A DNA stretch of 64,000 bases from an uncultured Candidatus Saccharibacteria bacterium (lineage in GTDB: Bacteria > Patescibacteriota > Minisyncoccia > UBA6257 > 2-01-FULL-56-20). Location of the stretch: contig OZ246418.1 in NCBI GenBank assembly GCA_965231155.1, forward strand, positions 110,850 through 174,849, given 5' to 3'. Shown one piece after another: positions 31,567-52,239 of this stretch. Position numbers and translations under genes: made by a program. Under the pieces are notes generated by a model that was not told the origin of the DNA, did not search any database, and was given only the letters and a program-made list of their open reading frames with translations. The number at the start of each line of letters is the position of its first letter. Position 1 is the stretch's first letter.

Positions 31567-32466
31567 TCAGCTTTCCCTTCGCTTCTCGGTGAATACTTTT
31601 AATCGACCACTCTCGATTACAATGGTAATTGTGCCATCTTTATCAGTCCGAAAGATAGTATTTCCCACAAAATTTTCGAGACGCTGAAGTGTCTCTTTGG
31701 TTGGATGACCATAGCGATTTTCCCCCACTCCAATAACAGCTATCTTGGGACGCACAGCACTGAGAAACTCATTACTGGATGAATACTTGGAACCATGATG
31801 AGAAACCTTCAGAATGTCTGCCTGTAGCGTGTCTCTCTTCCTTAAATACTCTTCGAGATTAGTTCCAATATCAGCCGTAAGGAGGATGGAGGTACTGGCC
31901 ATACGTACATGCGCCACCACTCCAGTGTCATTCAGTTCACCACTCTCCCGAAATGTCACCTCAGGAGAAAGAATCTCAATAATAGCATCCTCCTGAATAA
32001 TCCGATCGCCACGACCAATAAAAATGATAGGAATATTCTTCTCTTTTATCTTATCGACAAGTGTCTGCCACGACAAAGAATCATCATCAGGAGTCCGGCC
32101 AGTCATCAAAAACGCACCAAAATCATAACGATCTAAAAGATCGATAAATCCGCCATAATGATCAAGCTGGGGATGCGTGATAATAGCTAGGTCGACGTAT
32201 TTAGAAGAAGGAAGGGGAACTTTATCCAAGGCACGCGTAGCCGCACGAGAGGGACCGGCATCGGTCATCACCACCACCCCACTGGGAAACTGTACCAACG
32301 AACTATCCCCTTGTCCTACATCAAGCATCACAAACTGTGCCTGAGTCGAAGATGCGATGAGAATCTGACCCCAGAAGATGACATCCAGAAGAACAAGTAG
32401 GCCGATGAGTATAATGCTACGTTGATGATTTTTCATAAGGGAAATAGACATATACAAACCACCCAA
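31567..32466 (-). CDS. comEC: Metallo-beta-lactamase-fold domain corresponding to the C-terminal part of ComEC/Rec2.
   Basis: LDVGQGDSSLVQFP...IITHPQLDHYGGF is the MBL (HxHxDH) motif typical of the ComEC C-terminal domain. The N-terminal transmembrane anchor overlaps the upstream ORF. Confidence 0.65.
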   Translation of the reverse strand: MGGLYMSISLMKNHQRSIILIGLLVLLDVIFWGQILIASSTQAQFVMLDVGQGDSSLVQFPSGVVVMTDAGPSRAATRALDKVPLPSSKYVDLAIITHPQLDHYGGFIDLLDRYDFGAFLMTGRTPDDDSLSWQTLVDKIKEKNIPIIFIGRGDRIIQEDAIIEILSPEVTFRESGELNDTGVVAHVRMASTSILLTADIGTNLEEYLRKRDTLQADILKVSHHGSKYSSSNEFLSAVRPKIAVIGVGENRYGHPTKETLQRLENFVGNTIFRTDKDGTITIVIESGRLKVFTEKRRES

Positions 32467-34446: not shown

Positions 34447-36177
34447 CTAGTCCTTATTCTTTAAAGACTCCCCAAGGGAAGCATTGATAGCTTTTCGAAA
34501 ATCATCGATACTCAAATCTTCAGTTGGGACTTTCTTACTCACCTTCGAACTAGTCGGTACTGAAGATGACTCTTTTTTCAGATGATCAAGTGAGAGTGGT
34601 TGAGGAGCCTGAGGAGTGAAACTACGATTTACTTCATGCATTTTTGGACGTTCTTTTGGAGGAAAAGAACGAGGAGCGTCTTTCTGAATAGGTGCAACTG
34701 GCTTCTCTTCGTGAGTGAATTCGATACCCAAAGCACTCAGCGCAGCATGATCCTCTTTGTAGGCCGGCTGACGAGCCTTGAAGGGTTCCGGGCGTTGCCA
34801 CTGCTGGCGCGCTCCCCCGCCTCCTATCGGTGGTTTACCACGAGCCTGAGACTGTCCATCAAAATTACCCATCACGTTACTCCACTTTAAGATCTCTTCC
34901 TCTACCTGCTCCCGAGGTCGTCCGTAACGAACACGAGAAGCTTGGATGATATCCTGTGGCAATGAAGACTTTACCCTAAACGGAGGGAGGGTTGTGGCAG
35001 AAAATGGACGGCTGGTTACCCCATCAACCATCAGTTTTAGGTAAATCTGACGATTGGGAAGTGCTACGAGATCCTGAGGAGTAAACTCTGGATCAAATTC
35101 GTTTTCTAAAAATTCGGCGTCTGCAGCACCAACTCGAAAAACGATCATCGTCCCCACGTTGCCGAATACCGCATCACGCACTTTCGTTGATGTGTCAGTG
35201 ACTAACTGAGCAGTATACTGATGGGCAATGATAAGGTTTAAACGATATTTACGAGCCTCAGAAAGAATTCCCGCAAAAGAATCGGTGGCGAAGTTTTGGA
35301 ACTCGTCGACATACAGATAGAAATCAAGACGCTCCTCTTCTGGAATACGAATACGCTCCATAGCTGAAAGCTGAAGCTGAGTAATCATCATCGCTCCTAA
35401 AAGTGCGGAGTTGTCCTCGCCGATTCTTCCCTTGGAAACATTGACCAAAAAAATCTTCGAGGTGTTCATAATATCGAAAATACTGATTGTACTCTTGGCC
35501 TGTCCAACCACGTTACGGATCATGGCTGTAGACAAAAACTGTCCCACCTTATTCTGAATTGGCGCAATAGCTTCGTTGCGGAACTTATCCTGCCACTGCT
35601 CATACTCGTTTATCCAAAAAGCCTTCACCACCGGATCTTTCACATTGGCCACCACCTGTTGTCGAAAATCTTTGTCGACAAGAATACGGGTGATACCAAG
35701 CAGTGTTGAGTTTGGAGTCTCTAAGAGTGCCAGAATGGCATTATTCAAAATGTACTCCATACGAGCCGACCAGGTGTTGGCCCAGATCTTCGTGAAAATT
35801 CCCATCAGCCCCGAAGCCACTAAATGTTTATATTTTGGATCGGGTAGTTCTAAGGGATTGAAGCCAACAAAGAAATCAGGGTCAGCTGGATTGAAATAAA
35901 TGACATCATCTTTGCGCTCAACTGGAATCTTTTCCAAAAGTTCTTCAACGAACTCACCGTGAGGATCAATAACACAAACCCCGCTGCCATTCACGATATC
36001 CTGGATAACCATATTCTTAATCAGGGTGGTTTTACCAGTACCGGTCTTTCCCACAATATAAGTATGCTGACGTCGATCTCGACGCTTAAAACCAAACAAC
36101 CTATCTTGGTTGCGAAAATTAGTTCGGGCAAAATATACAACTTCTTTCTCTGGATTAGTTTCCATGACGCTCTTCAA
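34447..36177 (-). CDS. Soluble TraD/TrwB/VirD4-like (type IV coupling protein family, FtsK-HerA superfamily) P-loop ATPase with a ~170-aa low-complexity C-terminal tail. Paralog of 48856..50298.
   Basis: FGFKRRDRRQHTYIVGKTGTGKTTL (Walker A), VIDPHGEF, YLYVDEFQNFATDSF (Walker B), LSEARKYRLNLIIAHQYTAQL (typical TrwB/TraD C-terminal motif). No N-terminal transmembrane segment. The Pro/Gln/Lys-rich tail begins around GKPPIGGGGARQQWQRPEP. Confidence 0.65.
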   Translation of the reverse strand: MKSVMETNPEKEVVYFARTNFRNQDRLFGFKRRDRRQHTYIVGKTGTGKTTLIKNMVIQDIVNGSGVCVIDPHGEFVEELLEKIPVERKDDVIYFNPADPDFFVGFNPLELPDPKYKHLVASGLMGIFTKIWANTWSARMEYILNNAILALLETPNSTLLGITRILVDKDFRQQVVANVKDPVVKAFWINEYEQWQDKFRNEAIAPIQNKVGQFLSTAMIRNVVGQAKSTISIFDIMNTSKIFLVNVSKGRIGEDNSALLGAMMITQLQLSAMERIRIPEEERLDFYLYVDEFQNFATDSFAGILSEARKYRLNLIIAHQYTAQLVTDTSTKVRDAVFGNVGTMIVFRVGAADAEFLENEFDPEFTPQDLVALPNRQIYLKLMVDGVTSRPFSATTLPPFRVKSSLPQDIIQASRVRYGRPREQVEEEILKWSNVMGNFDGQSQARGKPPIGGGGARQQWQRPEPFKARQPAYKEDHAALSALGIEFTHEEKPVAPIQKDAPRSFPPKERPKMHEVNRSFTPQAPQPLSLDHLKKESSSVPTSSKVSKKVPTEDLSIDDFRKAINASLGESLKNKD

Positions 36178-36211
36178 TTATACCTCAAAAATCCTGATAA
36201 AAAACTGGACG

Positions 36212-36640
36212 CTATAGGCCACCCTCCCCCTCCCAAATCGACGAGCGAAACTTATCAGGGTAATATGCCTCAATCTTAATCATAGGGATAGTGGGTATCA
36301 TCCCCTCGGTCATCTTTTCTCTTAAGTTTCTCTCAAGCCCCACCTGATCATATCCCAGGCAAATGAGTTGAGGGGTAACGCTTTTAAAGACTTCATAAGT
36401 CCCAAGAGTTTCATCACCAAGCAGCACCTCAGAAACATCAGGGAATGCTCGTACTTTTTGGAGACGTTCCTCCTCGGATTCTCGGGGTTCCTTATTCTTC
36501 AGAAGTCGCACGGAACTGTTCCGAGCGACCACGACTATTAGTTCGTTCCCATGACTCCTCGCTTGTTTCAAAAGATAATGATGTCCGGGATGCAAACGAT
36601 CAAAAACTCCAAAAACCATCACTTTTTTTGTAGTAGACAT
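36212..36640 (-). CDS. Small cytidylyltransferase-like nucleotidyltransferase (TagD/RibL/CoaD-like HxGH fold).
   Basis: VMVFGVFDRLHPGHHYLLKQARSHGNELIVVVARNS has the (T/H)xGH nucleotidyltransferase motif; 142 aa. Confidence 0.6.
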   Translation of the reverse strand: MSTTKKVMVFGVFDRLHPGHHYLLKQARSHGNELIVVVARNSSVRLLKNKEPRESEEERLQKVRAFPDVSEVLLGDETLGTYEVFKSVTPQLICLGYDQVGLERNLREKMTEGMIPTIPMIKIEAYYPDKFRSSIWEGEGGL

Positions 36641-36686
36641 TAGTTACGCTTCTCACGGTATAGGAGTCTTTTCTCGTAGTCAAATA

Positions 36687-38357
36687 CTAGACAACCTCCG
36701 CCTGATAGCACGCTTCGCAATAGACAATCTCTGGACGATCGGGGGCGTAGTTGGTCTTTATTTCTTTACTGCATTTTCCACAGGCACGACTATGCAGGGT
36801 AAAGTTCCCTCGACGTTTGATGCGATTCATATGTCGGCAGCTAAAGCACCGCCGAGGAATTGGAAGTAGAGCTTTTTTATATATATCAAACTCGGCCTGA
36901 GTGAGACGGTAGTTTCTCTCGCAATCAATACAGGCAAAGATTTCTTTCAAAATATCCTCATCGACGTCCTGAATACGATCAGGAATCTTTTCTGACTTCA
37001 TCGTTTCCTGTCCTTTGGTCATTGGTAATTCGTCTTCCCATCGAAACCCTTGACCAATAGCCTCTTCTTTCGTCAGCGACATATTGTCCTGACTGATTGA
37101 TTCATTATAGGCAAAGAAACTCAGCGCTGGTGGCAGGAAAGATCCATATATCCCCTTCTCTTTCAACTCTCTCACAATCTGTTCGCGAATCTTTTTGTAC
37201 TCTTCCTCGGAATACTTTTTATTGAGAACCGCATAGCTGGCATTCTTCAAACCATCGCACCCGAAACAATTATTATTCCCTCCATTCATCGCAAGAGAGT
37301 ACTCAATGTCATGAGAAGTTTCCACCCACCACGAACCGATAACCCGCTGACTAGAACCCGCACCGACACATTCGATCATTAACTCGGCCTTGCGCCCGTG
37401 CCCTAAGATATCGTAAGAGTCCTTCGCATATTTCGCGGAGAAGGCGTTCTTTAAATTCTCCGAAAACGCTACCTCAAAACAATCGTGACAGTTCTTCGAT
37501 TCAGCAACATAATCCCCTGAGACATCGACAGATTTGAAGTTGTTGTTCTCTCGACGAGGGAATTTCAAAGTAAATACCTTGAACTCCTCCTCGAACTTTT
37601 TTGTCTTTTCGTAACTCCCCACAATTTCCGATACTCGTCTTTTCCACTCATCTTTATCAAGTTGTTCATTTAAAAAACAAAATGATTTATTGCGAAGATT
37701 CACACAGCCGAAACAGTTTGTGCAGTTGGCACAGTTCAAGAGAAACCAGGAGTTAAGACAGTCGCTCACGTTTTGACCCCAGGCTACCCCTGCGCACCGA
37801 TCTAGATTCACTCCTTCGTATGATCGTTCGGACGCATCGGCGTAGTAGGTGTCAACGGTATCCCGACTACTCGACAATCCCCGAGAATACATGCAGTTCT
37901 CATTTTTTGGACTGGAGTTGAAAATTAAATAACAATCTTTGTTATTACCTGCAAAGTTGGTGTACTCGCTATTCACATTCATCCCCATCGCTGCACTACT
38001 ATATAAAGCAGCCTTAGGAACCTTGAGTGCTAATTCTTTCAGCTGATCAAAGAATGGGCGACTTGAATCATACTCTATTCCGTGGCTCATCGGATCCCAC
38101 TTATCTGAAGCCCAACAATCATTACAGTACACAATATAAGGCGACTTCGGATTATACATCGTGATAATGGACCGATTACATAATGCACATATTCGTTTAT
38201 AGAGGGTTGATTCGTTGCGGTACACTGCTCGTCGTTTAAACCGACAGTCTGGGCAAAAAGGAGGCTCCTGGACACCTAGTTTGGCGTAGAATCCTCTATC
38301 TTCGTCGGTTATCTCAAACTCGTTTTTGCAAACCCGGCAGATTTTCATACCCTGCAT
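36687..38357 (-). CDS. Cysteine-rich multi-zinc-ribbon family protein, array paralog P1.
   Basis: N-terminal CRVCKNEF.I.DED..FY.K...PPFCPDCR..RR.VYRNE..LYKRICALC...YCNDCWASDKWDP, then YDSSRPFFDQ. Core repeats NCTNCFGCVNLRNKSFCFLNEQ and NNCFGCDGLKNASYAVLNKKYSEEEY. The C-terminal CIDCERNYRL...PRRCFSCR...CGKCSKEIKTNYAPDRPEIVYCEACY mirrors the N-terminus. No signal peptide or transmembrane segment. Confidence 0.8.
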   Translation of the reverse strand: MQGMKICRVCKNEFEITDEDRGFYAKLGVQEPPFCPDCRFKRRAVYRNESTLYKRICALCNRSIITMYNPKSPYIVYCNDCWASDKWDPMSHGIEYDSSRPFFDQLKELALKVPKAALYSSAAMGMNVNSEYTNFAGNNKDCYLIFNSSPKNENCMYSRGLSSSRDTVDTYYADASERSYEGVNLDRCAGVAWGQNVSDCLNSWFLLNCANCTNCFGCVNLRNKSFCFLNEQLDKDEWKRRVSEIVGSYEKTKKFEEEFKVFTLKFPRRENNNFKSVDVSGDYVAESKNCHDCFEVAFSENLKNAFSAKYAKDSYDILGHGRKAELMIECVGAGSSQRVIGSWWVETSHDIEYSLAMNGGNNNCFGCDGLKNASYAVLNKKYSEEEYKKIREQIVRELKEKGIYGSFLPPALSFFAYNESISQDNMSLTKEEAIGQGFRWEDELPMTKGQETMKSEKIPDRIQDVDEDILKEIFACIDCERNYRLTQAEFDIYKKALLPIPRRCFSCRHMNRIKRRGNFTLHSRACGKCSKEIKTNYAPDRPEIVYCEACYQAEVV

Positions 38358-38386
38358 TATACCCCTTGAAAGATGGGAACATCAAA

Positions 38387-40135
38387 TTAGATGATTTCGC
38401 TTTGGTAGCACTGCTCGCAGTACACCACCTCTGAGCCATCGGGGGTGTAGGTGGTTTCGAACTCATTTGGACATACTCCTTCTGGATGGTGTGAATGGGA
38501 GGCGGTGTTTTGGTGTACTTTGTAATCGCAGTTACACTTTTGATGATAAAGGAAAGGCAGGTTCACCGCTCGAAAACGCCGGAGATGACGACACTCAGGG
38601 CATTCCCGAGGGAGAGCAAGGCCAAATCGCTTCAAGAATTCCAGCTCTTTCTGAATAATGCGGAACGGGCGAGAACAGGTCATACAACCAATGATTTCGT
38701 TGATAATATCGTCTTTTGTTTCAACAACATCGTCTGGAAGATCGTGAGCTTGGAGGGTCGGCTCTCGTTTTGGTTTTTCTAATGGACGCCAGGCAAAACC
38801 ACTAGCCTCAGCAGTTTCTGGAGTTAATGGAAAGTAGTTGTTAGCGATTGTCTCGTTATAAGCGAAAGGAGATATCTCGATAGGGAAAAATTCGCCATAG
38901 CGATACTCCCTTCCCTTTTTGTCGACATAGGGCATTTCGTTCATGTGGGCGATGATCTTTGGAATCATTGCGTCGTACTCTTCTTCAGTGTATTGCTTGT
39001 TTAAGATGCAGTTCGCTTTGCTCCGTAAACCAATACAACCAAAGATATTATTGTTATTGTGACAGTTAACCCCATACTGCACATTGTTCCCTGTCCAAAG
39101 AACGACACCGAAGAGGAGTCGGGAAGCCTGAAGCCCGCTATCGACAAGTTCATACATGAGTTCGGCATGCTCACCAACGCCATATCCGTCATAGGTATCG
39201 GTCATGCCCCAACCCCCGTTCATTACAAACTTACAGTCCTTGTTGTTATTCCACAAATCAAACGCATAGAAACAGTTCGCGGTATGCTCGAGATTATTTC
39301 CTGTAACGTTTTGACAGTTCACCAGATTAGCAAACCGACGAAGCGCTTTCTTTTTTACTTCATTTTTGAATCTATCTTTAAACTTCTCTAGGGCAACATA
39401 ACTTCCAAGATTAAACTCCTTGATTTTATTGAAATACTCCTCCTTCGAATATGGCTCGTTGAAAATATAATACTGCTTGTTCCGTAAGCCAGAACAGCCG
39501 AAACAATTTGTGCAACCTCGGCAGTCATACAAAAAATAGCTATCGGTACAGGAGTCACAATTTTCTGAGAAGAAAGTGGAGTAGAGCTTACTTGAAGCAA
39601 CATCCTCGTAGCAAATTTCCGATTCGCCAATCGCAAAAACATCCATACAATCTTTGGAACCATTGCATCTTGAGGAGTAGGTCACATTTTCACTCCGCCA
39701 ACAAGCCGAAGAAAGATAGACGTCCTTGGTCTGACCGACATGATTCGAATAAGTCGTGTTGACCGCTTCACCATAGAATAAAGCGGGCATAGGAACGGTT
39801 TTCATGAGTTCTTGAAACTGAGTGAAGAATGGCTTAGAAAAGTCATAATCGCGACCGTAGTCTATGGCATCCCAGTTATCCGCCCACCAGGCATCACGGT
39901 CATAGACACGAACGCCGGACTCTTGAGAGAAACAGGACAAGACCTCCTTCCCCGTGGCTTCACAAGTGCGACGATGGAGACTTCTCTCGTTGCGATAGGC
40001 AAATCGCCGCTGCATCCGACAGTTGGGACAAAAGGTTGGCGGTGGAACTTCTATTTTTTTATAGAAATCAAAATCCTCCGAGGCAATCGTGAAGTCTTTT
40101 TTACAGTTCTGGCAGATTCTCTCTCCCTGGTTCAT
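38387..40135 (-). CDS. Cysteine-rich multi-zinc-ribbon family protein, array paralog P2 (His-insert subtype).
   Basis: CQNCKKDFTIASEDFDFYKKIEVPPPTFCPNCRMQRRFAYRNERSL...WWADNWD...DYDFSKPFF; GCTNCFGCSGLRNKQYYIFNEPYSKEEY; IFGCIGLRSKANCILNKQYTEEEY. The C-terminus is CMTCSRPFRIIQKELEFL...PRECPECR...SHSHHPEGVCPNEFETTYTPDGSEVVYCEQCY. Confidence 0.8.
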   Translation of the reverse strand: MNQGERICQNCKKDFTIASEDFDFYKKIEVPPPTFCPNCRMQRRFAYRNERSLHRRTCEATGKEVLSCFSQESGVRVYDRDAWWADNWDAIDYGRDYDFSKPFFTQFQELMKTVPMPALFYGEAVNTTYSNHVGQTKDVYLSSACWRSENVTYSSRCNGSKDCMDVFAIGESEICYEDVASSKLYSTFFSENCDSCTDSYFLYDCRGCTNCFGCSGLRNKQYYIFNEPYSKEEYFNKIKEFNLGSYVALEKFKDRFKNEVKKKALRRFANLVNCQNVTGNNLEHTANCFYAFDLWNNNKDCKFVMNGGWGMTDTYDGYGVGEHAELMYELVDSGLQASRLLFGVVLWTGNNVQYGVNCHNNNNIFGCIGLRSKANCILNKQYTEEEYDAMIPKIIAHMNEMPYVDKKGREYRYGEFFPIEISPFAYNETIANNYFPLTPETAEASGFAWRPLEKPKREPTLQAHDLPDDVVETKDDIINEIIGCMTCSRPFRIIQKELEFLKRFGLALPRECPECRHLRRFRAVNLPFLYHQKCNCDYKVHQNTASHSHHPEGVCPNEFETTYTPDGSEVVYCEQCYQSEII

Positions 40136-41868
40136 GCGAATTCTTTAATATAACATCCCCGACAGAGAAGCGGGTTAACTTCTTTATTTTTTATCGATGT
40201 TTCAAATCCCGTCTGGCACTGCGAACATTTCACAGTGATGGTGGTCAGATTCATGGCCCACTCAACCATCTTCTCTCTCACCCGACAAAAAGGACAATTC
40301 CGTGGCAAGGGGAATTTTAGATTTTTAAGCAAATCAAATTCTTGCTTGATGATTCTAAACGCGCGCCCACAACTCAGACAACCGATCTTCTCCTCAATAA
40401 TCTTTTCATCTACATCACGAATATGATCAGGTAGGTCTTCTGCTTTTACGGTAACTTCGTAAGCAGCCTCCGCATCTTCACGCCACCTTAATCCTTTATT
40501 AAGGACCTCTTCTTTAGACATAGGGAAGAACACACTGGCCAAAGAATCGTTATATGGCAACGGACTCATCTCCATCGGGAAAAACTCACCATATTTATAT
40601 ACTCTCCCCTGGGCATCAGTATATGGCATCTCGTCCATATGTTTTTTTATTTTCCGCACAAGATCCTTAAACTCCTCCTCAGAATACTCTTTGTTCAAAA
40701 CACAGTTCCTGACTCGTCGAGCTCCCACACACCCAAAATGATTCTTCGCCGTCCACGATCCGTTTGTATACTCTGCGTTAATAGTCTCGAGCCCCGTATC
40801 TTTTATGAATTGGGAGTCCGAACAACCCTGGCCAGTAATATTTCCCTCATATAAAAGATCGAGCGGTCCCGCCGAACCAGATATGTCATAGCTATTCGTC
40901 TGTGGACTAGAAAGATTCATAAACATAAATTTACAGTCCTCTGCGCCAATTACTTCGTAACACTGATTGCAGTTCTTTGACCCAAAAATATAGTTCCCCG
41001 TACAATTCTGAGTTGTATCTTCATAATGAGCTTTTACAATCTGTGTCGCCCAGTGTTTTTCTGCGTCCTCTTTGGCTTGTAGATATCCCTGATAGGAACC
41101 AAGATCATACTTTTTTATAGCGTCTAAATATTCATCCTTGGTCAGTTGTTGGTTGAAAAACACGTACTGCTTATTTTTCAAGTTCGCCGAACCAAAACAA
41201 TTCTGGCAGTTTTTTGAATCACGCAAAAAATAACAATCCATAGACTCCTCTACCTGCCCACGACATCCAGCACTCTTACTTACTTTATACGCATTCATCA
41301 TATCGTACGATTGATTAGTCGCGTACGATAAAGAACAATTCAAAAGATCAGCCGAATAGAGCACAAAAAAACCGTAAGCGCAATTTTCGTTTTGCATCGA
41401 TTCAAAAAGAAGATAGCAGTTCTTTAGATTGAGAGCATGGTTATTATACGGAGATGTATCCAAAGATTCAGTGCCAAGAGAGAGTGCCTGGAGAGGAGCT
41501 TGATGAAGCAACTCGTCGTACTGCTCAAAAAATGGGCGCGAGAAATCATAGTCGCGACCATAGTCTCGTGGATCCCACTCATCAGAAAACCAACACTTGG
41601 AACAATAAATTGTGTACTCAGAGTTAGAAGCATACATCGAGATAATGTCTTTATGACATAAATCACAGGTTCTCTTATAGAGTTTTACGATATTAAAAAG
41701 CGCTAAACGACGCTGAAAACGACACCGCGGACAGAACGTCGGTGGAGGTACGCTAATCTTTTTATAAAATTCAAAATCCTCCGACTCAATCGCGAACTGC
41801 GTTTTGCAATTTTGACACTGTTTAATTTCTGAGTTCATACTATATTCTGCTGATAACAACTCTCGCAC
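40132..41868 (-). CDS. Cysteine-rich multi-zinc-ribbon family protein, array paralog P3. The likely true start is the internal ATG at 41838 (MNSEIKQCQNCK), which abuts the P4 stop codon.
   Basis: CQNCKTQFAIESEDFEFYKKISVPPPTFCPRCRFQRRLA...LYKRTCDLCHKDIISMY...YCSKCWFSDEWDP..DYDFSRPFFEQ; C-terminal CLSCGRAFRIIKQEFDLL...PRNCPFCR...CSQCQ...CRGCY. Confidence 0.8.
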   Translation of the reverse strand: MRELLSAEYSMNSEIKQCQNCKTQFAIESEDFEFYKKISVPPPTFCPRCRFQRRLALFNIVKLYKRTCDLCHKDIISMYASNSEYTIYCSKCWFSDEWDPRDYGRDYDFSRPFFEQYDELLHQAPLQALSLGTESLDTSPYNNHALNLKNCYLLFESMQNENCAYGFFVLYSADLLNCSLSYATNQSYDMMNAYKVSKSAGCRGQVEESMDCYFLRDSKNCQNCFGSANLKNKQYVFFNQQLTKDEYLDAIKKYDLGSYQGYLQAKEDAEKHWATQIVKAHYEDTTQNCTGNYIFGSKNCNQCYEVIGAEDCKFMFMNLSSPQTNSYDISGSAGPLDLLYEGNITGQGCSDSQFIKDTGLETINAEYTNGSWTAKNHFGCVGARRVRNCVLNKEYSEEEFKDLVRKIKKHMDEMPYTDAQGRVYKYGEFFPMEMSPLPYNDSLASVFFPMSKEEVLNKGLRWREDAEAAYEVTVKAEDLPDHIRDVDEKIIEEKIGCLSCGRAFRIIKQEFDLLKNLKFPLPRNCPFCRVREKMVEWAMNLTTITVKCSQCQTGFETSIKNKEVNPLLCRGCYIKEFA

Positions 41869-45252: not shown

Positions 45253-45328
45253 ATGTGCCTATTTTCTCCCTTTTTAGAGGTTTAGGCAACTTCTTCTTAA
45301 TAACCCCAACTTTAGTAGAACAACTAGC

Positions 45329-47107
45329 CTATACAACCTCAACCTGATAGCACTCTTCACAGTAAATAATTTCCGATCGATCGAGAGCATATCCCGTCTC
45401 AAAATAATGAGGACAGGGAACTAAACCATGCGAGTGAGTAGCACTATTTCTGTACACTCCTCCATCCGAAGAAACTCCTGCACACTGACACTGCCTTTCA
45501 TAAACTTTTATTGAGTTACGCTGAGCAATTCGAGTATAGTGTCGACAGTTCACGCAGAGTCGAGGGAGGGCCAGATTAAACTTCTTATAAAACTGAAGCT
45601 CTTGCGGAATCACTCGAAAAGCCCCCGTGCAACCATGGCTGCAACTTCCCTCGTGTACGCATCCAATAACTTGTTGCAAAACAGTCTCCTCTACATCTTT
45701 TATCTGATCAGGGATCTGAGTGTAAGGAAGGGTTACTGTATGTTGCTTTTTCTCTGAATTTTTCCACTGGAAACAAGCTTTCTTTGATTGTTCTTCAGTC
45801 AAAGGGAAATGTTCATAAGCCAAACTCTCGTTATAAGCATATGTGGAGAGCTCTACTGGGAAAAACTCTCCATATCGATAGACTCGGCCAGCTTGGTCAG
45901 TGAAAGGCACCTCATCCATCTGTTTCTTGATCTTTGAAATGAGTGCTTCATATTCCTCTTTAGCGTACTGCTTATTCAAGATGCAATACTGTTTATTCCG
46001 AAGACCAATACAGCCAAACAGATTAGAGGAAGTCATGCAGTACTCCGAATATTCCAGATCGTTTACGTTAGTGTAACACTGCAAACAAAACTTAAGATTA
46101 TTTGCGCCTGCACCAGTCATTGCAATCTCGTAGCTAAAAGTGGCATTCTCGCCCCACACACTGTAGTCATAACACTCCTTACTCGAAGGCACCTGCATAT
46201 ACTGACAGTACTTCAAATTTTCACAGTCGTTTACAAGATAAGACTTCTTTACGTTTCTCGAGTTGGAAATATAAGAACCACCGACATCAGCATTTTTTGT
46301 TCCTTCGAGATATTTGGTAGGAAATTTTAGCCAAAAATCTTGAGCTTTTCTTCGAATTTGTTCTAACTCTGTATGTGACCCCAAGTTGAATGATTTTAAC
46401 TTCTCTTCGTACTCCTCCTTCGAGTACTGTTCATTAAAAATACAGTAACTCTTCCCTCTGAGATTGACACACCCAAAACAGTTCGTACAACCTCTGAGAT
46501 TCTTCGAAAAATAGACATCGATACAATCGACACACTGACTGGAAAAAAGAGTTCTATTGCAATTTGTGAGCCAGAAGTTCTCGTAACACTGTTCTGACTT
46601 CTGAATATGCGAGTTGTCTATACAATCTCGAGAGTAGTCAACTCCATTTCCATAAGCACAATCTTCGGTATAACTGGCGTTGAAGAGAAGATAACAATTT
46701 TTGAGAAAAGAAGCGTTATTAGAATACTCGCTATTCGTTACAGTAATAATAGACTTGGCTGGACGAGGAACTTTTTTAGATAATTCCAGGTATTGTTCAA
46801 AAAATGGACGGGAAAAATCATAATCCTCACCATAAGTCATTGGATCCCATTCATCAGACCACCACTCCTCCTGAGTGTAGACTGGAAAATGGGCATCGGC
46901 GGGATAGGTTGAAAAAAGATCGGTGCCGGAAAATGAGCTGGTCCTCTTATAGAGAGCCCGCTCATTACGAAAAGCGAGGCGACGTTGAGCCCGACAGAGC
47001 CAACAAAAAGTCGGAGGTGGCACTTCCATCCGCTTATAGAAATCGAAATCCTCCGGTTCAATAATGAATGATTGCTTGCAGTTCTGACAGATCTTATTTT
47101 CGATCAT
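45329..47107 (-). CDS. Cysteine-rich multi-zinc-ribbon family protein, array paralog P6 (His-insert subtype).
   Basis: ICQNCKQSFIIEPEDFDFYKRMEVPPPTFCWLCRAQRRLAFRNERALYKR...WWSDEWDPMTYGEDYDFSRPFFEQ; GCTNCFGCVNLRGKSYCIFNEQYSKEEY; LFGCIGLRNKQYCILNKQYAKEEY; C-terminal ...PRLCVNCR...ATHSHGLVPCPHYFETGYALDRSEIIYCEECY. Confidence 0.8.
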   Translation of the reverse strand: MIENKICQNCKQSFIIEPEDFDFYKRMEVPPPTFCWLCRAQRRLAFRNERALYKRTSSFSGTDLFSTYPADAHFPVYTQEEWWSDEWDPMTYGEDYDFSRPFFEQYLELSKKVPRPAKSIITVTNSEYSNNASFLKNCYLLFNASYTEDCAYGNGVDYSRDCIDNSHIQKSEQCYENFWLTNCNRTLFSSQCVDCIDVYFSKNLRGCTNCFGCVNLRGKSYCIFNEQYSKEEYEEKLKSFNLGSHTELEQIRRKAQDFWLKFPTKYLEGTKNADVGGSYISNSRNVKKSYLVNDCENLKYCQYMQVPSSKECYDYSVWGENATFSYEIAMTGAGANNLKFCLQCYTNVNDLEYSEYCMTSSNLFGCIGLRNKQYCILNKQYAKEEYEALISKIKKQMDEVPFTDQAGRVYRYGEFFPVELSTYAYNESLAYEHFPLTEEQSKKACFQWKNSEKKQHTVTLPYTQIPDQIKDVEETVLQQVIGCVHEGSCSHGCTGAFRVIPQELQFYKKFNLALPRLCVNCRHYTRIAQRNSIKVYERQCQCAGVSSDGGVYRNSATHSHGLVPCPHYFETGYALDRSEIIYCEECYQVEVV

Positions 47108-48795
47108 ACAACTTCTTTGTTATAACATTCCTCGCAGTAGACAATTTCGGGCCGATCTGGAGCATAGGAGGTCTTAATATCTTTACTACACTTTGCACAT
47201 GTTCGATCGAATATTTTAATTGGATTCAGTTTGGCCACTCGACCACGATCGCGACACAATGGACACTGTCGCGGAACAGGAATGCTGAATCGACGATAGA
47301 AATCCAACTCCATCTGAATAATTTGGTAGTTCTTCCCACAAGACTCGCACTTCAAGATCCCCTGAAGAATCTCGTCTTTCACATCTTTAATATGATCAGG
47401 AACTACGACGGTAGCCTCCTTATACTCTCGTACGTCGGGATCGCGCCAGCTAAAACCTCTGCGTAGAGCCTCCTCCTTAGTCAGCGGGAAAAACTCATAC
47501 GCAAGTGACTCGTTATACTTCCAGGGACAGATATCAGTCGGGAAATACTCACCATAGCGATACTCCCTTCCGAGACTGTCTTTGTAGGGAACTTCAGCCA
47601 TCTGCTTTCTGATCTTCGGTACCAACTCCTCATACTCTTCTTTGGTGTACTGCTTATTTAAAATGCAGTAACTCCCCTTTCTGATTCCGAAACAACCAAA
47701 AAGGTTCTCTGAACCATGACAGCCGTACGAGTACTCCAAGTGATGACAGTTGTAATCCCAGAAGCCAAACCTAATATTATTAGCATTCAGACCGACCCAA
47801 GCAGAGTTATAAATCCACTCAGCATTCACGCCAAACTGAGTATAGTCATAAGCTTTTCTTGTCGGTCCAGACTTCAGAAGTTGACCAAAACGAACGTCTT
47901 CGGCATAACCAGCCATATACGAATCACGAACATTCTTGGCGTTGTAAATGTAATCCCCTGAAACGTTTTCGTTCTTTCTCCCATGAAATGCCTTTCGGGG
48001 ATATTTCAAGAAAAATTCATTCACTTTCTTCCTAAAGGTCTCTCGAGCTTGAAATGAACCAAGATTTAGTTCAGCCAACTGCCTCTCAAATTCTTCCTTA
48101 GAAACAGGCTGATTAAAGATCTGATAGCTCTGACCTCGAAGATTGATACATCCAATACAATTCGTACAGCCAACTAAGTTTTTAGAAAAATAGACATTAT
48201 GACACTCGTCGCAGTCTTCCGAGTAGAAAGCTTGATAGCATTTATTGCATGTTAAGAAATCATATGAAAGCTCATCGAAGTTTACATAGTTACCATCTAT
48301 ACAATCCTTCATGTCCGTCGCCGTATTTACATACGCGCAGTTCTCCGTGCCATCAATTCGGAAACATAGGTAGCAGTCTTTAAGTGTTGAGGCGGCGTTA
48401 CAGTACTCGCTCCGAATCATGCTGGAGTACTCAGTATAAAGAACGGGATGCGGTGTGGCTTTTAAAAGCTCGTCAAACTGCTCAAAAAAAGATCGTGAGA
48501 AATCGTAATCTCGTCCATAGGTCTTTGCGTCCCACTTATCAGACCACCAGATGTCTTGTCTATAGGTTTTATAAGGAGCATCGGGATGATAACTTGAAAT
48601 GACACTATCCCCCGTAAAATCACACTTTCGTTTATGGAGAAGGCGATAGCCACACCAAGAGAATCTCTGAAGCATACGACACTCTGGACACCAGGTTGGT
48701 GGAGGTACCTGCATCTGCTCATAGAACGAAAAATCGTCGGGTTCTATGGCGAATGATTTTTGACAACTCTGACAATGCCTTGTTTCCGTGTTCAT
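47104..48795 (-). CDS. Cysteine-rich multi-zinc-ribbon family protein, array paralog P7, first gene of the array.
   Basis: HCQSCQKSFAIEPDDFSFYEQMQVPPPTWCPECRMLQRF...WWSDKWDAKTYGRDYDFSRSFFEQ; GCTNCIGCINLRGQSYQIFNQPVSKEEF; LFGCFGIRKGSYCILNKQYTKEEY; C-terminal CESCGKNYQIIQMELDFYRRFSIPVPRQCPLCR...CAKCSKDIKTSYAPDRPEIVYCEECY. Its stop overlaps the P6 start in an ATGA. Confidence 0.8.
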   Translation of the reverse strand: MNTETRHCQSCQKSFAIEPDDFSFYEQMQVPPPTWCPECRMLQRFSWCGYRLLHKRKCDFTGDSVISSYHPDAPYKTYRQDIWWSDKWDAKTYGRDYDFSRSFFEQFDELLKATPHPVLYTEYSSMIRSEYCNAASTLKDCYLCFRIDGTENCAYVNTATDMKDCIDGNYVNFDELSYDFLTCNKCYQAFYSEDCDECHNVYFSKNLVGCTNCIGCINLRGQSYQIFNQPVSKEEFERQLAELNLGSFQARETFRKKVNEFFLKYPRKAFHGRKNENVSGDYIYNAKNVRDSYMAGYAEDVRFGQLLKSGPTRKAYDYTQFGVNAEWIYNSAWVGLNANNIRFGFWDYNCHHLEYSYGCHGSENLFGCFGIRKGSYCILNKQYTKEEYEELVPKIRKQMAEVPYKDSLGREYRYGEYFPTDICPWKYNESLAYEFFPLTKEEALRRGFSWRDPDVREYKEATVVVPDHIKDVKDEILQGILKCESCGKNYQIIQMELDFYRRFSIPVPRQCPLCRDRGRVAKLNPIKIFDRTCAKCSKDIKTSYAPDRPEIVYCEECYNKEVV

Positions 48796-48855
48796 TAAAA
48801 ACCATTATACCCCGAACTCCAAGAAACAAAAAAAGCCCTTCTTTAGAGCTTTTTC

Positions 48856-50298
48856 TTAAACGATTGGTTCAGGAGGTGGGGCGATATCAGCCGGTTTTCG
48901 GCCTTCAATAATAGCCTTCTCCTGGGCACTGCGAATGATTGTGGACTCCTCTTCCATAATAAGCTTTTTCGCATCATCCACTGGAATCGAGTACTTCTCA
49001 CGAGAACGTTTTACAATTTCTTCTTTAAAAGAACGATGAGGTGGAGGCATGATCTTTAAAGTTTCTGCAGAAAACGGATCATAGGTTTCTCCATCAATCG
49101 TCATCTTGATATAAAACTCTTTCATCCCAAGATTAATCATATCTTTGGTATCAAAGATTGGCGCCATTTCAGGCTTCAACTTCACTGCATCCTCACCACC
49201 AACTCGGAAGATGATGATACTGCCAACGTTTCCAAGCACGGCCGCCTGCACACGCGGAATCAGCTGGCTGACGTACTGGTGGGCAACCGTTAAACATAAT
49301 CCGTATTTTCGTGCTTCAGAAAGGATATTCTCGAATGTTTCTGTTACGAGGTTTTGAAACTCGTCGACATAGAGATAAAAATCGTGACGATCTTTTTCTG
49401 GCAAACCAGCGCGCGACATTCCGGCCTGTTTAATCTTCGTGATAAACATGGCACCAAAGAAACTAGAGTTCTCTTCGCCCAATTTTCCCTTGGCCACATT
49501 GATGAGAATAATTTTCTTCTCCTGCATTAGCTTCTCGAGATCAATCCTATTCCCCTTCTGTCCGAAGATATTCCGAAGCATTGGGTTAGAAAGGAACTGA
49601 CCAAGCTTGTTCACTAATGGAATAATAGCATCGGTATCAAACTTCTCGGACCAATCAGCAAACTCAATTGCCCAGAAACGCTTCACCATATCATCGTCGA
49701 TGTGCTCCACCACTTTCTGACGATAGTTGCGATCGGTGAGCATAGAAATCATACCCCGCATGGTGGCATGAGGATAATCAAGAAGTGCCAAACAGGTGAA
49801 CCGGAAAACGTGTTCAAGACGTGGCGTCCAGTTGGCACCGAACTGTTTTTGCATCACCTCAATTAATCCTTGTGTTAGCTGATGCTTAAAATCAGGATCA
49901 ACGTTCGCTAAAGGGTTGAAGGATACTGGATAGTTGAAATCAGAAGGATCAATCAAAACGACATCCTCAATTCTGTTCTCGGGAATAAAATTGAGCATCT
50001 CTTCGACGACGTCACCGTGAGGATCCATTAAGCAAAGCCCATGACCGTAGGCGATATCCTGACGAAGCATCAACTCAAGAAGTTTAGACTTACCCACACC
50101 GCTCTTCCCAATAATGTAGAGATGGCGACGGCGATCAACCCGCTTAAAACCAAAAATGAATCGCTTCTCCTCGAGGGCGGCCACATAGTTCGTGCGACCA
50201 ATAAACACAATATCCTCTGGCTTCCCCCGACCATAGATCGGGAGTTCTGAAGGAGGTGGAGCGTATTTAATTATCTGAATCTTCCCTTCGCGTGGCAT
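48856..50298 (-). CDS. Soluble TraD/TrwB/VirD4-like P-loop ATPase, paralog of 34447..36177, without the low-complexity tail.
   Basis: FIFGFKRVDRRRHLYIIGKSGVGKSKLL (Walker A), LMDPHGDV, FYLYVDEFQNLVTETF (Walker B), LSEARKYGLCLTVAHQYVSQL. It is collinear with the other ATPase over about 430 aa and has no transmembrane segment. Confidence 0.65.
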   Translation of the reverse strand: MPREGKIQIIKYAPPPSELPIYGRGKPEDIVFIGRTNYVAALEEKRFIFGFKRVDRRRHLYIIGKSGVGKSKLLELMLRQDIAYGHGLCLMDPHGDVVEEMLNFIPENRIEDVVLIDPSDFNYPVSFNPLANVDPDFKHQLTQGLIEVMQKQFGANWTPRLEHVFRFTCLALLDYPHATMRGMISMLTDRNYRQKVVEHIDDDMVKRFWAIEFADWSEKFDTDAIIPLVNKLGQFLSNPMLRNIFGQKGNRIDLEKLMQEKKIILINVAKGKLGEENSSFFGAMFITKIKQAGMSRAGLPEKDRHDFYLYVDEFQNLVTETFENILSEARKYGLCLTVAHQYVSQLIPRVQAAVLGNVGSIIIFRVGGEDAVKLKPEMAPIFDTKDMINLGMKEFYIKMTIDGETYDPFSAETLKIMPPPHRSFKEEIVKRSREKYSIPVDDAKKLIMEEESTIIRSAQEKAIIEGRKPADIAPPPEPIV

Positions 50299-50305
50299 AT
50301 CCCAA

Positions 50306-50803
50306 TTATAAGGCTTTTAGCTCTTTTAGGAATGCTTCAAATGCATCAAGTGCTTTCTCTGCCTCGTCAGGACCCACTTTGAAATCCGGCGAATGTACTA
50401 AGTTATTACGAAGACGGTGAGCACGCCACACCCCTTCTAAACTCTTCACCTCGTCCGAAGATAGTTGTCCGAGACGATCCGACATGTGTTCTCCTTCAAA
50501 ACCCATCTGCTTCAGGGTGTCATCAACAACCTTATCAGCCTCGATAACCGATAGAGTAATAGCTTCGTGAGTTCCCAACATAAATTTCTTGACCACTTTT
50601 TCCCAACGCTCCTGCATTATCTTTTCTGAAAGATTAATAGTTCTCTTTTTTGGCTCATTATCGGGATGAAGATTTGGACGATAGTGCCAGAACTTATGAA
50701 TGGCATAGGCGATCACGGCAATCAAAATAATGTCAAAAATAATAAAGAACCACTTCAAAAAATTGAAGTATCGTATCCAGAAATCAGGTTGCGAGAAAAA
50801 CAT
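50306..50803 (-). CDS. Hypothetical single-pass membrane protein with a cytoplasmic helical domain.
   Basis: 165 aa; N-terminal transmembrane helix (WFFIIFDIILIAVIAYAI), then a charged alpha-helical region. It lies 8 nt upstream of the ATPase gene. Confidence 0.45.
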   Translation of the reverse strand: MFFSQPDFWIRYFNFLKWFFIIFDIILIAVIAYAIHKFWHYRPNLHPDNEPKKRTINLSEKIMQERWEKVVKKFMLGTHEAITLSVIEADKVVDDTLKQMGFEGEHMSDRLGQLSSDEVKSLEGVWRAHRLRNNLVHSPDFKVGPDEAEKALDAFEAFLKELKAL

Positions 50804-50819
50804 AGTAGTAGACGTGAAA

Positions 50820-52166
50820 TTATTGGAATTTCTCTAAATCTTCTTCATTTCCGAAAATTGCTAGACCAGACGGTGGACCGGCCTTGCGGTTCTCAGAACG
50901 CTTCACATGAGGTGCAGTCAGCACCACGGCTGTTGGTGGATGGAAAAGAGTAGCCAGACACTGAGTGGTCATCAAAAACTTCTTTGATTTAAAGTTCCAG
51001 TCAAAAAAGTATGAAGTGAGAAGTTTCCCCATGAACGTTTCTGGAGACATCTCGCGTTCACGATAGTTATAGAGCATGCGTTGTTTCTTATACTCGTTAC
51101 GCCAGTGTGGAAAAATATACGGCGGATTCCAAATTTGAGTACGCGTACCGGCAGCGTGATTCTGCTTGAAATAATTAAGGTCACTCACTGCATACTGGTT
51201 AAACGCACCAGCCAGACCACGACGTGGGAAACTATCGTAGTAAAGAGCTTTTGGTGAAAGATAGACGAATCGGATCATCGTCTCGAAGGCTCGCTTCGAA
51301 AGATTGCCCTCAACTGCTTTCAATACATCCGTCTCCCCAGGAGTCCTCACCACGAAGGTACTCTTAAACTCTTCCTTCTGGCCAGTCACCTTACTCGTAA
51401 ATTTTGGCAACGGACCACCAGGGAAACTGACTGTGGTAACCACTTTATCTTTTTTCTTGTGTTCAGTCTTCCCATCTTTAATTTTCTTAATAAGCCCTTC
51501 AAACTCCTCGTGCCATTCGTCCTCAGCGGGAGCAATCAGAATCTGAATCCCCACCAGCTCCTCCTTCTTCACCTTACTCAAGACTTCTATGAAGGTTGAG
51601 ATGGGATCGAACTGTTTGTCCTCGTCAGGTGACTCAAACTCTTTATATGTCTTAATCGGATAGGCTGCTGGTCGTGCAGTGAGCATCTCTGTCCCCCACA
51701 AGTCGTATCCTTGGCGATAACACTCCTGCATATTCGTTGGAAAACGAGTGATGTAATCAGGAACCTCAACCAACTCTATATCGGAATAGTAAGAAAAGAA
51801 GGCAGCCTCCACTAATGGACGTTGCTTGCTATAAAACCGAATATAAAAATGGATCTCCCCACCAAAACTGACCATCTCTAATGCAAACCAACGAGTCACC
51901 TCGCCGTCCTTATACCATTCACCAAAATTTCCGGCAGAGTTCCTCAGGGCATGCAAGGCCATTAAAACCTGCTCCATGGCCTGAGGGCTCGTATTCACTT
52001 CTCGAGGAATGAATATCTCGAGCATCGCCCACTGCGTGTGATGCTCAAAATCCTTCTGTCGCCAGGCAAGCCAGGAGGACTCGAGGAGAGGTAGCAACGC
52101 AAGAAAAAGCCAAAACCACCAGACTGAAAAAACAAAATGGATAATATTCCAGGAAAGTTCGAGCAT
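50820..52166 (-). CDS. Hypothetical membrane-anchored protein (448 aa); first gene of the co-directional block containing the ATPases and the Cys-rich array.
   Basis: N-terminal hydrophobic hairpin (IIHFVFSVWWFWLFLALLPLL), then a large soluble domain with no recognised motifs. Confidence 0.45.
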   Translation of the reverse strand: MLELSWNIIHFVFSVWWFWLFLALLPLLESSWLAWRQKDFEHHTQWAMLEIFIPREVNTSPQAMEQVLMALHALRNSAGNFGEWYKDGEVTRWFALEMVSFGGEIHFYIRFYSKQRPLVEAAFFSYYSDIELVEVPDYITRFPTNMQECYRQGYDLWGTEMLTARPAAYPIKTYKEFESPDEDKQFDPISTFIEVLSKVKKEELVGIQILIAPAEDEWHEEFEGLIKKIKDGKTEHKKKDKVVTTVSFPGGPLPKFTSKVTGQKEEFKSTFVVRTPGETDVLKAVEGNLSKRAFETMIRFVYLSPKALYYDSFPRRGLAGAFNQYAVSDLNYFKQNHAAGTRTQIWNPPYIFPHWRNEYKKQRMLYNYREREMSPETFMGKLLTSYFFDWNFKSKKFLMTTQCLATLFHPPTAVVLTAPHVKRSENRKAGPPSGLAIFGNEEDLEKFQ

Positions 52167-52239
52167 ACTCTATAAGTGTAGCCTACTTTTACGGATTATC
52201 GAAGATAATCCAAATTTTCAAAGTGATCGGAGAAGACCC

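Follow-up and report, generated by a model that had tools for sequence, protein, structure and literature searches.

A conserved gene cluster in Parcubacteria-type Patescibacteria, possibly built around two orphan VirD4-like ATPases

Gene content and layout of the locus

The locus considered here lies in a 64,000-nucleotide stretch of DNA (hereafter, the window) from an uncultured Candidatus Saccharibacteria bacterium (assembly GCA_965231155.1, contig OZ246418.1, positions 110,850 to 174,849). Two paralogous ATPases that resemble type IV coupling proteins (T4CPs), two membrane proteins and seven Cys-rich paralogs (P1 to P7) are encoded there in a co-directional run on the minus strand, unbroken from 34447 to 53268. 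We estimate at about one in two the probability that this run represents a chromosomal cluster that is conserved in Parcubacteria/Paceibacteria-type Patescibacteria and built around two orphan VirD4-like T4CP homologues. That the genes form a real, functionally linked cluster is, in our judgement, likely.

Read in the direction of transcription, the run begins with the head gene of the conserved cluster, which encodes a 342-residue protein with Sigma70_r4 (Pfam, 2.5e-13) and HARE-HTH (1.2e-5) domains (52240-53268). It is followed by the gene of a 448-residue DUF8128 protein (50820-52166), with one N-terminal transmembrane (TM) helix and no P-loop, which we propose as a membrane anchor for the ATPase, and by that of a 165-residue protein that spans the membrane once and has a HEPN-like helical domain at its C-terminus (50306-50803). 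ATPase2, a soluble T4CP-like P-loop ATPase of 480 residues (48856-50298), precedes the array of Cys-rich zinc-finger/beta-solenoid paralogs. These are P1 (563 residues, 47104-48795), a member of a well-conserved orthogroup; P2 (592 residues, 45329-47107), with an additional Cys/His-rich insert preceding its last finger; P3 (588 residues, 43486-45252); P4 (549 residues, 41835-43484), from a distinct ancient orthogroup; P5 (568 residues, 40132-41838), with an extra intact CxxC-x17-CxxC finger; P6 (582 residues, 38387-40135); and P7 (556 residues, 36687-38357), with four intact fingers. A 142-residue cytidylyltransferase-like gene (36212-36640) and ATPase1, again soluble and T4CP-like (576 residues, 34447-36177; likely true start an ATG at 36165), close the run.

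A first-pass annotation, made from the letters of this DNA, had given these positions, the strand and the gene order as we find them, with small or negative gaps (-4 to +76 nucleotides (nt); the P1 stop and P2 start overlap by 4 nt). Its account of the extent of the cluster held for the genes that it named, and fell one gene short upstream, where the Sigma70_r4/HARE-HTH gene marks the start of the conserved cluster. The mechanical open reading frame (ORF) starts of P4 and P5 (43649 and 41868) are too long, the ATGs supported by homology being those at 43484 and 41838. No tRNA or Rfam features were found within the cluster region.

The two ATPases resemble type IV coupling proteins

Both ATPases exceed the gathering cut-offs of the Pfam families TrwB_AAD_bind, T4SS-DNA_transf, DUF87 and TraG-D_C. 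TrwB_AAD_bind scores 57 and 35.7 bits for the two proteins (cut-off 20.5; E = 2.1e-15 for ATPase1), and its alignment covers residues 31-351. A PDB profile search with 27 members of the ATPase family retrieved TrwB (3e-5) and DotL (0.03), with no match to VirB4, HerA or FtsK. On the basis of the Pfam matches and the PDB profile result, the ATPases are T4CP-like, and this grouping agrees with their initial description as TraD/VirD4-like proteins. The Walker motifs are intact in both (GKSGVGKS and YLYVDEFQN in ATPase2), and the Walker A-to-B spacing of ~240 residues is compatible with an inserted all-alpha domain. The ATPases may work like a T4CP motor. They had also been described as paralogs without a TM anchor. 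Indeed, they share 44% identity over 429 residues (E = 8e-135) together with every motif quoted at the time, and neither contains a hydrophobic TM segment in a Kyte-Doolittle scan (window 19, threshold 1.6).

Conjugative coupling proteins would nonetheless be the wrong category for these ATPases, which have no membrane domain, are not associated with a type IV secretion system (T4SS) or relaxase, and remain below the cut-offs of curated families. The NCBIfam T4CP thresholds were not reached (best SXT_TraD, 61.8 bits vs 366; conju_CD1115, 50 vs 250), and no relaxase or VirB4-type T4SS genes were found in the 64-kb window or among the annotated neighbours of L009-L011 (L numbers denote the individual loci compared in this study).

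ATPase2 has orthologs at 68-95% identity in Jorgensen-, Lipton-, Nomura-, Ryan-, Niyogi-, Azam- and Wolfebacteria; for the orthologs of ATPase1, the range is 58-76%. Measured against the window, median identities at the same loci are 75% (ATPase2) and 67% (ATPase1), compared with 60% for TrmD, 57% for SecD and 52% for SecF. The ATPases are under strong purifying selection, and the fact that they are more conserved than SecD, SecF and TrmD argues for a core function. The first-pass annotation had suggested that the unit arose by duplication of an ATPase-plus-paralog cassette. As a recent local event this was discarded: ATPase1 and ATPase2 are each closer to their orthologs in distant lineages than to one another, and ATPase1, ATPase2, P1 and P4 represent ancient orthogroups across lineages.

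ATPase1 is set apart by a long low-complexity tail. A C-terminal CxxC-x17-CxxC finger is intact in 19 of the 24 complete ATPase1 orthologs and in none of 42 ATPase2 orthologs, with the consensus C-S-N-C-G-K-x-T-x-V-P-F-x-P-x-x-G-R-P-V-Y-C-x-x-C; the ATPase1 ortholog of L010 is flagged with zf_Tbcl / CxxC-x17-CxxC finger models. When a hidden Markov model (HMM) of the fingers of ATPase1 orthologs was compared with the 122 ORF translations of the window, it matched only Cys-rich paralogs, namely the terminal finger of P1 (5.8e-6) and residues 53-82 (5.5e-5) and 525-550 (1e-3) of P7. The ATPase1 tail of the window keeps an LGIEF motif (34717-34731), which is present in 15 of 24 ortholog tails. 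At the very C-terminus, many ATPase1 orthologs also have an amphipathic motif, L(R/K)xA(I/L)xx(S/A)L.

Two single-pass membrane proteins precede ATPase2

The 448- and 165-residue proteins had been called membrane proteins, and each does carry one N-terminal TM-like segment. Homologs of the former at 53-96% identity bear a precomputed PF26449 (DUF8128) annotation; hmmscan of the window protein itself gave no PF26449 match up to E = 1, the Pfam copy used possibly lacking the model. Its AlphaFold2 model (pLDDT 78.5, pTM 0.76) has TrwK as best match by two methods, and Foldseek ranks 14 TrwK chains first. Neither a Walker A motif nor a Pfam or NCBIfam match to VirB4 families was detected in the 448-residue protein. 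Since DUF8128 is devoid of Walker A, we assign the match to the VirB4-specific N-terminal domain, and the soluble part of DUF8128 is predicted to fold like that domain. One DUF8128 homolog (P0250, 59% identity, on a 378-kb contig) carries the NCBI label 'Anaplasmataceae bacterium' and in all likelihood stems from a Patescibacteria metagenome-assembled genome (MAG) that was misclassified.

In the 165-residue protein, the TM segment spans residues 12-39. Its orthologs share the pattern IEAD ... WxAH(R/K)xRNx(L/I)(V/A)H (50393-50428 in the window), the RNxxxH (Rx4H) motif of which is kept in 25 of 26 sequences. This motif is of the type found in HEPN domains.

The Cys-rich proteins form a large zinc-finger/beta-solenoid family

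All seven paralogs are intact, contain 25-34 cysteines each and are 30-47% identical to P1 (P2 47%, P3 46%, P4 30%). The family is very large, with more than 7,600 matches in a 90%-clustered database and at least 2,295 clusters at 50% identity (E <=1e-30). Lengths are uniform (513-612 residues among the 150 best-scoring representatives), and the named homologs are all annotated as hypothetical. The family falls into ancient orthogroups that evolve slowly (56-64% identity across lineages). We found no Pfam model for the whole 550-590-residue architecture, no PDB relative and no secretion signal; the proteins of the array are cytoplasmic.

From the N-terminus, a zf_Tbcl finger (CxxC-x24-CxxC) is followed by a CxxC-x17-CxxC finger. 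The middle consists of two solenoid modules, both of which terminate in a CFGCxNLRNKxYCIxNxQYxKEEY motif plus a helix, and then an alpha/beta region; a second zf_Tbcl finger and a terminal CxxC-x17-CxxC finger complete the protein. The second N-terminal finger is intact in P5 (residues 58-82; 41593-41667, minus strand) and P7 (residues 57-81; 38115-38189, minus strand), its cysteines having been lost in the other paralogs. As every paralog has this extra segment, the architecture has a finger pair at both ends. In P7, the four intact fingers occupy residues 7-38, 57-81, 476-507 and 526-550. The putative metal ligands have the Cys spacing of zf_Tbcl and zf_Tbcl_2, with Pfam and NCBIfam scores of 18-23 bits vs cut-offs of 24-36; the P7 matches to both Pfam models are weak, and some homologs and ATPase1 orthologs pass. 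A candidate Fe-S cluster site, CxxCxxC at residues 210-216, was rejected as a family-wide feature because only C213 is invariant and P4 and P5 have no ligands.

The solenoid modules are the most divergent part between paralogs, with 25-30% identity vs 37-47% elsewhere, and are conserved among P1 orthologs (54%). In the P4 orthogroup, three of the four cysteines of the second zf_Tbcl finger have been lost (CPExxx ... H[PF]DxR), a state kept in 11 orthologs from other loci and without exception among those examined. The conserved solenoids of P1 orthologs and this shared derived loss identify the paralogs as old, sub-functionalised lineages and not as recent copies. The terminal finger, too, takes a form particular to the P4 orthogroup (YYPPEWGYKKIAC), which occurs at L005, L011, L012, L015, L043, L059, L060, L072, L076 and L080.

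The cluster is conserved in diverse Parcubacteria

Gene neighbourhoods were compared by tblastn with every protein of the window. One set of loci was seeded with ATPase2 and comprises 28 loci, three from look-ups and 25 from a scan of one genome per species; the scan loci, at 68-95% identity, derive from Jorgensen-, Nomura-, Ryan-, Niyogi-, Azam- and Wolfebacteria and other Paceibacterota. A second set, seeded with the Cys-rich family, holds 80 loci from a metagenome scan, 39 of which are at least 10 kb long.

The ATPase2-seeded loci, from diverse Parcubacteria, show a conserved order of the Sigma70_r4/HARE-HTH gene, DUF8128, the 165-residue protein, ATPase2, zero to seven Cys-rich genes and ATPase1. 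The module is present in 3/3 look-ups and 25/25 scan loci. A 165-residue ortholog lies between DUF8128 and ATPase2 in 24 of the 28, and the Sigma70_r4/HARE-HTH ortholog directly upstream of DUF8128 in 22. Downstream, Cys-rich genes follow ATPase2 in 21 of the 26 loci that have at least 1 kb of sequence there. ATPase1 comes after zero to three Cys-rich genes at 13 loci, directly after ATPase2 with no Cys-rich gene between them in L025, L028 and L034. The exception is L032, where the 10 kb downstream of ATPase2 contain no Cys-rich gene and no ATPase1. The multi-gene unit of ATPases, two membrane proteins and Cys-rich array put forward in the first-pass annotation is thus borne out: nearly all 28 loci have DUF8128 and the 165-residue protein upstream of ATPase2 and, on its downstream side, Cys-rich genes, ATPase1 or both. 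The orthologs of P3 and P6 in L012, the closest relative, are 78% and 82% identical, respectively.

Seen from the Cys-rich family, an ATPase is found in 26 of the 80 loci and in 21 of the 39 long ones. The latter figure compares with ~5% expected from two ATPase genes per ~0.8 Mb genome and a 22-kb window (p ~7e-17 if the loci were independent, which they are not). In 34 of 37 cases, the ATPase gene points the same way as the Cys-rich gene closest to it, at a median gap of 581 bp. Rearrangements have not broken the linkage: L023 has Cys-rich genes between DUF8128 and the 165-residue gene, L027 has them between the latter and ATPase2, and L062, L067, L072 and L106 have the swapped order DUF8128-like gene, ATPase1, Cys-rich genes, ATPase2. 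With about half of the Cys-rich arrays lying away from ATPases, the tie between the two that had been proposed is strong but not obligate. The Sigma70_r4/HARE-HTH gene still comes first in the cluster when the two ATPases have changed places (L062, L106, L073). It was recorded among L009-L036 (22 of these 28 loci) and in L062, L073, L079, L088 and L106, and may be a dedicated regulator or reflect plain synteny.

The cytidylyltransferase-like gene (PF01467, 4.5e-14; TIGR00125, 57 bits) had been counted as a member of the system and was dropped, a homolog being adjacent in only one of the 28 ATPase2-seeded loci (L024) and in none of the 80 Cys-rich-seeded ones; it is probably a passenger inside the run. 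In L024 (10583-12302) the homolog again stands directly upstream of a Cys-rich gene, a single case that could be due to chance. A link of the Cys-rich family to cell-wall and division genes, which the first four look-ups had brought up (MraY-FtsW-MurG, MreBCD-PBP2, VanY, M23), was likewise abandoned, as such genes occur in 3 of the 39 long loci.

Other variation was seen around these genes. The second most frequent neighbour of the Cys-rich arrays after the ATPases is a PGK and DHH-phosphoesterase pair, accompanied by MurJ in some cases, which adjoins them in ~8 of 39 long loci (the pair was recorded at L003/L004, L045, L067, L072, L080, L092, L093, L108 and L115) and is probably lineage synteny. 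In L010 (9767-13053), a PemK-family toxin gene and an IS481-type transposase are located between ATPase2, a single Cys-rich gene and ATPase1, with a second transposase (rve) upstream of DUF8128. In two relatives, ATPase2 is directly followed by a small ORF of 58-59 residues (L010, 9499-9678; L011, 9478-9654); the gap between ATPase2 and P1 in the window (60 nt) is too short for an ORF of this type.

Genomic surroundings of the cluster

SecD and SecF lie upstream of the cluster here and precede the Sigma70_r4/HARE-HTH gene in 16 of the 28 ATPase2-seeded loci. Downstream of ATPase1 are trmD and then ComEC (31567-33817, minus strand). ComEC falls within the locus in 7 of 23 ATPase1 loci, in the same ATPase1-trmD-ComEC order in L018, L034 and L035. 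The first-pass annotation was correct in placing ComEC downstream in the same minus-strand run; the specific link to DNA uptake that it entertained gives way to synteny limited to certain lineages. ComEC is represented by two overlapping minus-strand ORFs, one with the Competence domain (32417-33817) and one with a metallo-beta-lactamase domain (31567-32466). Its halves are also matched separately in L021, L022, L025 and L035, and either a natural split or a frameshift may account for this.

Between SecD and a tRNA-Arg gene, a 1,021-residue protein with PG_binding_1 and dockerin type I domains is encoded on the minus strand (55804-58869). The remainder of the window is ordinary chromosome (AddA-like helicase-nuclease, MgsA, Nramp, ABC transporters, M1 peptidase, Dus), the GC content of the region is unremarkable, and close homologs of the window proteins all come from Parcubacteria-type Patescibacteria MAGs; the source organism is itself of this type.

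A possible membrane machine

Canonical T4CPs carry their membrane anchor in cis, with two TM helices per protomer. We tentatively propose that the cluster encodes a T4SS-independent membrane machine in which the coupling ATPase is split from its anchor, with anchors resembling the VirB4 N-terminal domain and HEPN domains, an ATPase with a zinc-finger tail, and interchangeable zinc-finger/beta-solenoid proteins as specificity adaptors. DUF8128 and the 165-residue protein, with one TM helix each, would take over in trans the role that the two-helix membrane domain has in a T4CP. A hexamer of ATPase2 could thereby be tethered to the membrane in the way that the VirB4 motor is by VirB3 and the VirB4 N-terminal domain. 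ATPase1, with its finger- and motif-bearing tail, might be a second motor or a receptor. The Cys-rich paralogs would dock through their conserved, finger-bearing ends, and their paralog-specific solenoid surfaces might determine the targets of the machine, with the paralogs as interchangeable adaptors or as clients. The divergence of the solenoid modules between paralogs, their conservation among P1 orthologs and the antiquity of the distinct P4 orthogroup fit the pattern of an adaptor. Within this scheme, the adaptor role in particular is doubtful.

Nucleic acid is our leading guess for the cargo, in view of the DNA-translocase-type motor, the many zinc fingers and the HEPN-like domain. The machine would probably be independent of VirB4-type T4SSs and have a core, housekeeping-like role; one possibility is that it selects nucleic acids or proteins for translocation or processing in a host-dependent lifestyle.

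Weighing the evidence

Several observations speak against this interpretation and the cluster reading on which it builds. The mechanism as a whole is pieced together from gene order, domains and predicted folds. Foldseek TM-scores between DUF8128 and TrwK are low (0.30-0.36), and HEPN_Swt1 was matched below threshold in five of nine orthologs of the 165-residue protein (17-23 bits vs a cut-off of 27.5; best 8e-5). The finger of ATPase1 itself has decayed in the window to a cysteine-free remnant, RPEPFKARQPAYKED (34750-34794), and the sharing of this finger type with the Cys-rich family is suggestive and not specific, as CxxC-x17-CxxC is a widespread domain (TIGR04272/PF23477). Adjacency alone is weak evidence in small genomes, where gene order is broadly conserved and where SecDF remains syntenic in 16 of 28 loci; moreover, the sampled loci come from related lineages and are not independent draws. 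No ATPase at all is present in 18 of the 39 long Cys-rich-seeded loci. In four genomes, P1 orthologs form arrays of one to five copies with no ATPase within 10 kb and with neighbours that include MraY-FtsW-MurG, MreBCD-PBP2 and PGK, and assembly CAZGHF01 contains one array linked to an ATPase (L016) and another, of five genes, that stands apart (L006). Finally, an 11-bp hairpin with a U-run, picked up as a terminator-like site in a pattern scan, lies directly 3' of the ATPase2 stop (48804-48856, minus strand), and a perfect TATAAT, read directly from the sequence, follows it and ends 8 nt ahead of the P1 ATG. The hairpin folds at -16.8 kcal/mol with a z-score of only -1.25, and is not distinguishable statistically from shuffled sequence. 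The two elements may, with some uncertainty, be a terminator or attenuator and a promoter of the array's own, so that the Cys-rich array may be a separate transcription unit; the position of the TATAAT would imply a near-leaderless transcript.

This raises the question as to whether the neighbourhood reflects conserved synteny without shared function, with DUF8128, the 165-residue protein and ATPase2, with or without ATPase1, as a real module and the Cys-rich proteins as an independent cytoplasmic family, for instance one that binds nucleic acids or is regulatory, whose genes would tend to occupy this place because streamlined genomes keep a stable gene order. The ATPase-free loci, the P1-ortholog arrays with other neighbours, the possible terminator and promoter ahead of P1 and the example of SecDF, which shows that unrelated genes also stay adjacent, all lend themselves to this explanation. 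We nevertheless consider it unlikely. The linkage outlasts both the embedding of Cys-rich genes in L023 and L027 and the swapped order of L062, L067, L072 and L106, the ATPase is by far the commonest neighbour of the family, well ahead of cell-wall genes, and the terminal zinc-finger type is common to ATPase1 and the Cys-rich proteins.

The T4CP classification of the ATPases invites another explanation, namely that they are genuine coupling proteins of a VirB4-type T4SS near oriC and that the Cys-rich proteins are substrates or effectors secreted into host cells. In other systems, T4CP genes are often far from virB4 (PMC12102498), the Cys-rich proteins are a multi-paralog family like some effector repertoires, and the ATPase1 tail holds short conserved motifs, as T4CP tails do. 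However, just 148 of 5,713 Patescibacteria T4CPs lie near virB4, and in S. epibionticum the t4cp gene is dispensable while T4SS genes are essential (PMC12102498). Members of the Cys-rich family are compact, with several zinc fingers and no secretion signal, and evolve slowly as ancient orthogroups, unlike typical effectors; the ATPases have no TM domain and apparently their own anchor resembling the VirB4 N-terminal domain. We therefore regard effector secretion as quite improbable. Similarly, we see a slim chance that the ATPases, ATPase1 especially, pull DNA through ComEC in place of ComFA, with the zinc-finger proteins binding or processing it for nucleotide salvage. ComEC does lie two genes after ATPase1, as it does in a minority of other loci, T4CPs such as TrwB and VirD4 are DNA translocases, and bacteria of the Candidate Phyla Radiation (CPR), which cannot make nucleotides, are thought to scavenge DNA (PMC6744442). 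However, trmD intervenes, ComEC is absent from 16 of the 23 ATPase1 loci and from every swapped-order locus, and the constant partners are DUF8128 and the 165-residue protein. Least probable by far is an anti-phage defence island or mobile-element remnant that combines a HerA/FtsK-type ATPase, a HEPN nuclease and variable sensor paralogs, which would accommodate the HEPN-like motif, the variable paralog copy number and the IS481 and PemK insertions inside the L010 cluster. PADLOC gave just generic P-loop matches of the ATPases to the mad8 and HerA models, weak ones, and a region-4 match to MzaA; the Cys-rich, DUF8128 and 165-residue proteins had no PADLOC match, and no defence-system architecture emerged. 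The same housekeeping context (SecDF, trmD) recurs across lineages, the ATPases are better conserved than SecD, SecF and TrmD, and T4CPs number ~2 per genome in 2,918 genomes (PMC12102498). An origin from phages or mobile elements was dismissed, as no relative of the Cys-rich family was found on IMG/VR viral contigs, the GC content is unremarkable and the context is that of an ordinary chromosome.

Orphan coupling-protein homologues in Patescibacteria

The existence of orphan T4CPs in Patescibacteria is already known. A survey reported 5,713 VirD4-like T4CPs in 2,918 Patescibacteria genomes, 148 of them near virB4, and its authors suggested possible exaptation; it also described TrsD, a stand-alone protein remotely homologous to the N-terminal portion of VirB4, and most Patescibacteria TrsD homologues adjoin virB4 (PMC12102498). 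A literature search for DUF8128, the CxxC-x17-CxxC domain and Cys-rich paralogs of CPR bacteria found no mention of the cluster or of DUF8128 in the library that was searchable. Apparently new are the partners conserved alongside these ATPases, the VirB4-like fold predicted for DUF8128, the membrane protein with a HEPN-like motif, the zinc finger common to ATPase1 orthologs and the Cys-rich proteins, and the architecture of the latter.

Patescibacteria account for a large share of bacterial diversity and have tiny genomes, most of which hold two VirD4-like ATPases outside a T4SS locus. With the window and more than 100 related loci, these orphan ATPases gain a conserved cluster with defined partners. 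In the genome studied here, the zinc-finger array alone spans ~12 kb of a main contig of ~0.8 Mb. Two families without an assigned function are here placed in a structural and genomic context for the first time, which makes the question experimentally addressable.

Comparison with known systems

Of the systems that resemble this cluster, T4CPs (VirD4/TrwB/TraD/DotL) are the closest to its ATPases, which have the P-loop nucleotide-binding domain with its Walker A/B context and find their only PDB sequence relatives in TrwB and DotL. Unlike T4CPs, the ATPases described here have no N-terminal TM domain and no relaxase or VirB4-type T4SS neighbours, occur as two ancient paralogs per genome, one of them with a C-terminal zinc finger, and score far below the NCBIfam TraD/VirD4 cut-offs. 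The predicted fold of DUF8128 resembles the N-terminal domain of VirB4 (TrwK), as do stand-alone proteins of the TrsD type, and its N-terminal TM helix recalls VirB3-VirB4 fusions. In contrast to VirB4, it has no ATPase domain and no Pfam VirB4 match and is paired with a T4CP-like ATPase; it also differs from most Patescibacteria TrsD homologues in not being next to virB4.

The 165-residue protein shares with Swt1-like HEPN proteins an Rx4H motif placed after an acidic IEAD helix motif, as well as repeated weak HEPN_Swt1 matches. It departs from them in that these matches are all below threshold and the domain is TM-anchored, and any nuclease activity is putative. In the Cys-rich proteins, the Cys spacing and flanking residues of the terminal fingers agree with the models of zf_Tbcl (PF13451) and zf_Tbcl_2 (PF23477, TIGR04272). 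Whereas the latter are small generic modules, the proteins of the array have a 550-590-residue architecture in which a finger pair, two solenoids, an alpha/beta region and a further finger pair follow one another. Lastly, the combination of an ATPase with small membrane partners is reminiscent of archaeal Ced DNA import and of FtsK-HerA translocases. The match to CedD is weak and confined to the P-loop region (27 vs 600 bits), and nothing homologous to the membrane components of Ced turned up, so that the resemblance to Ced is one of analogy only.

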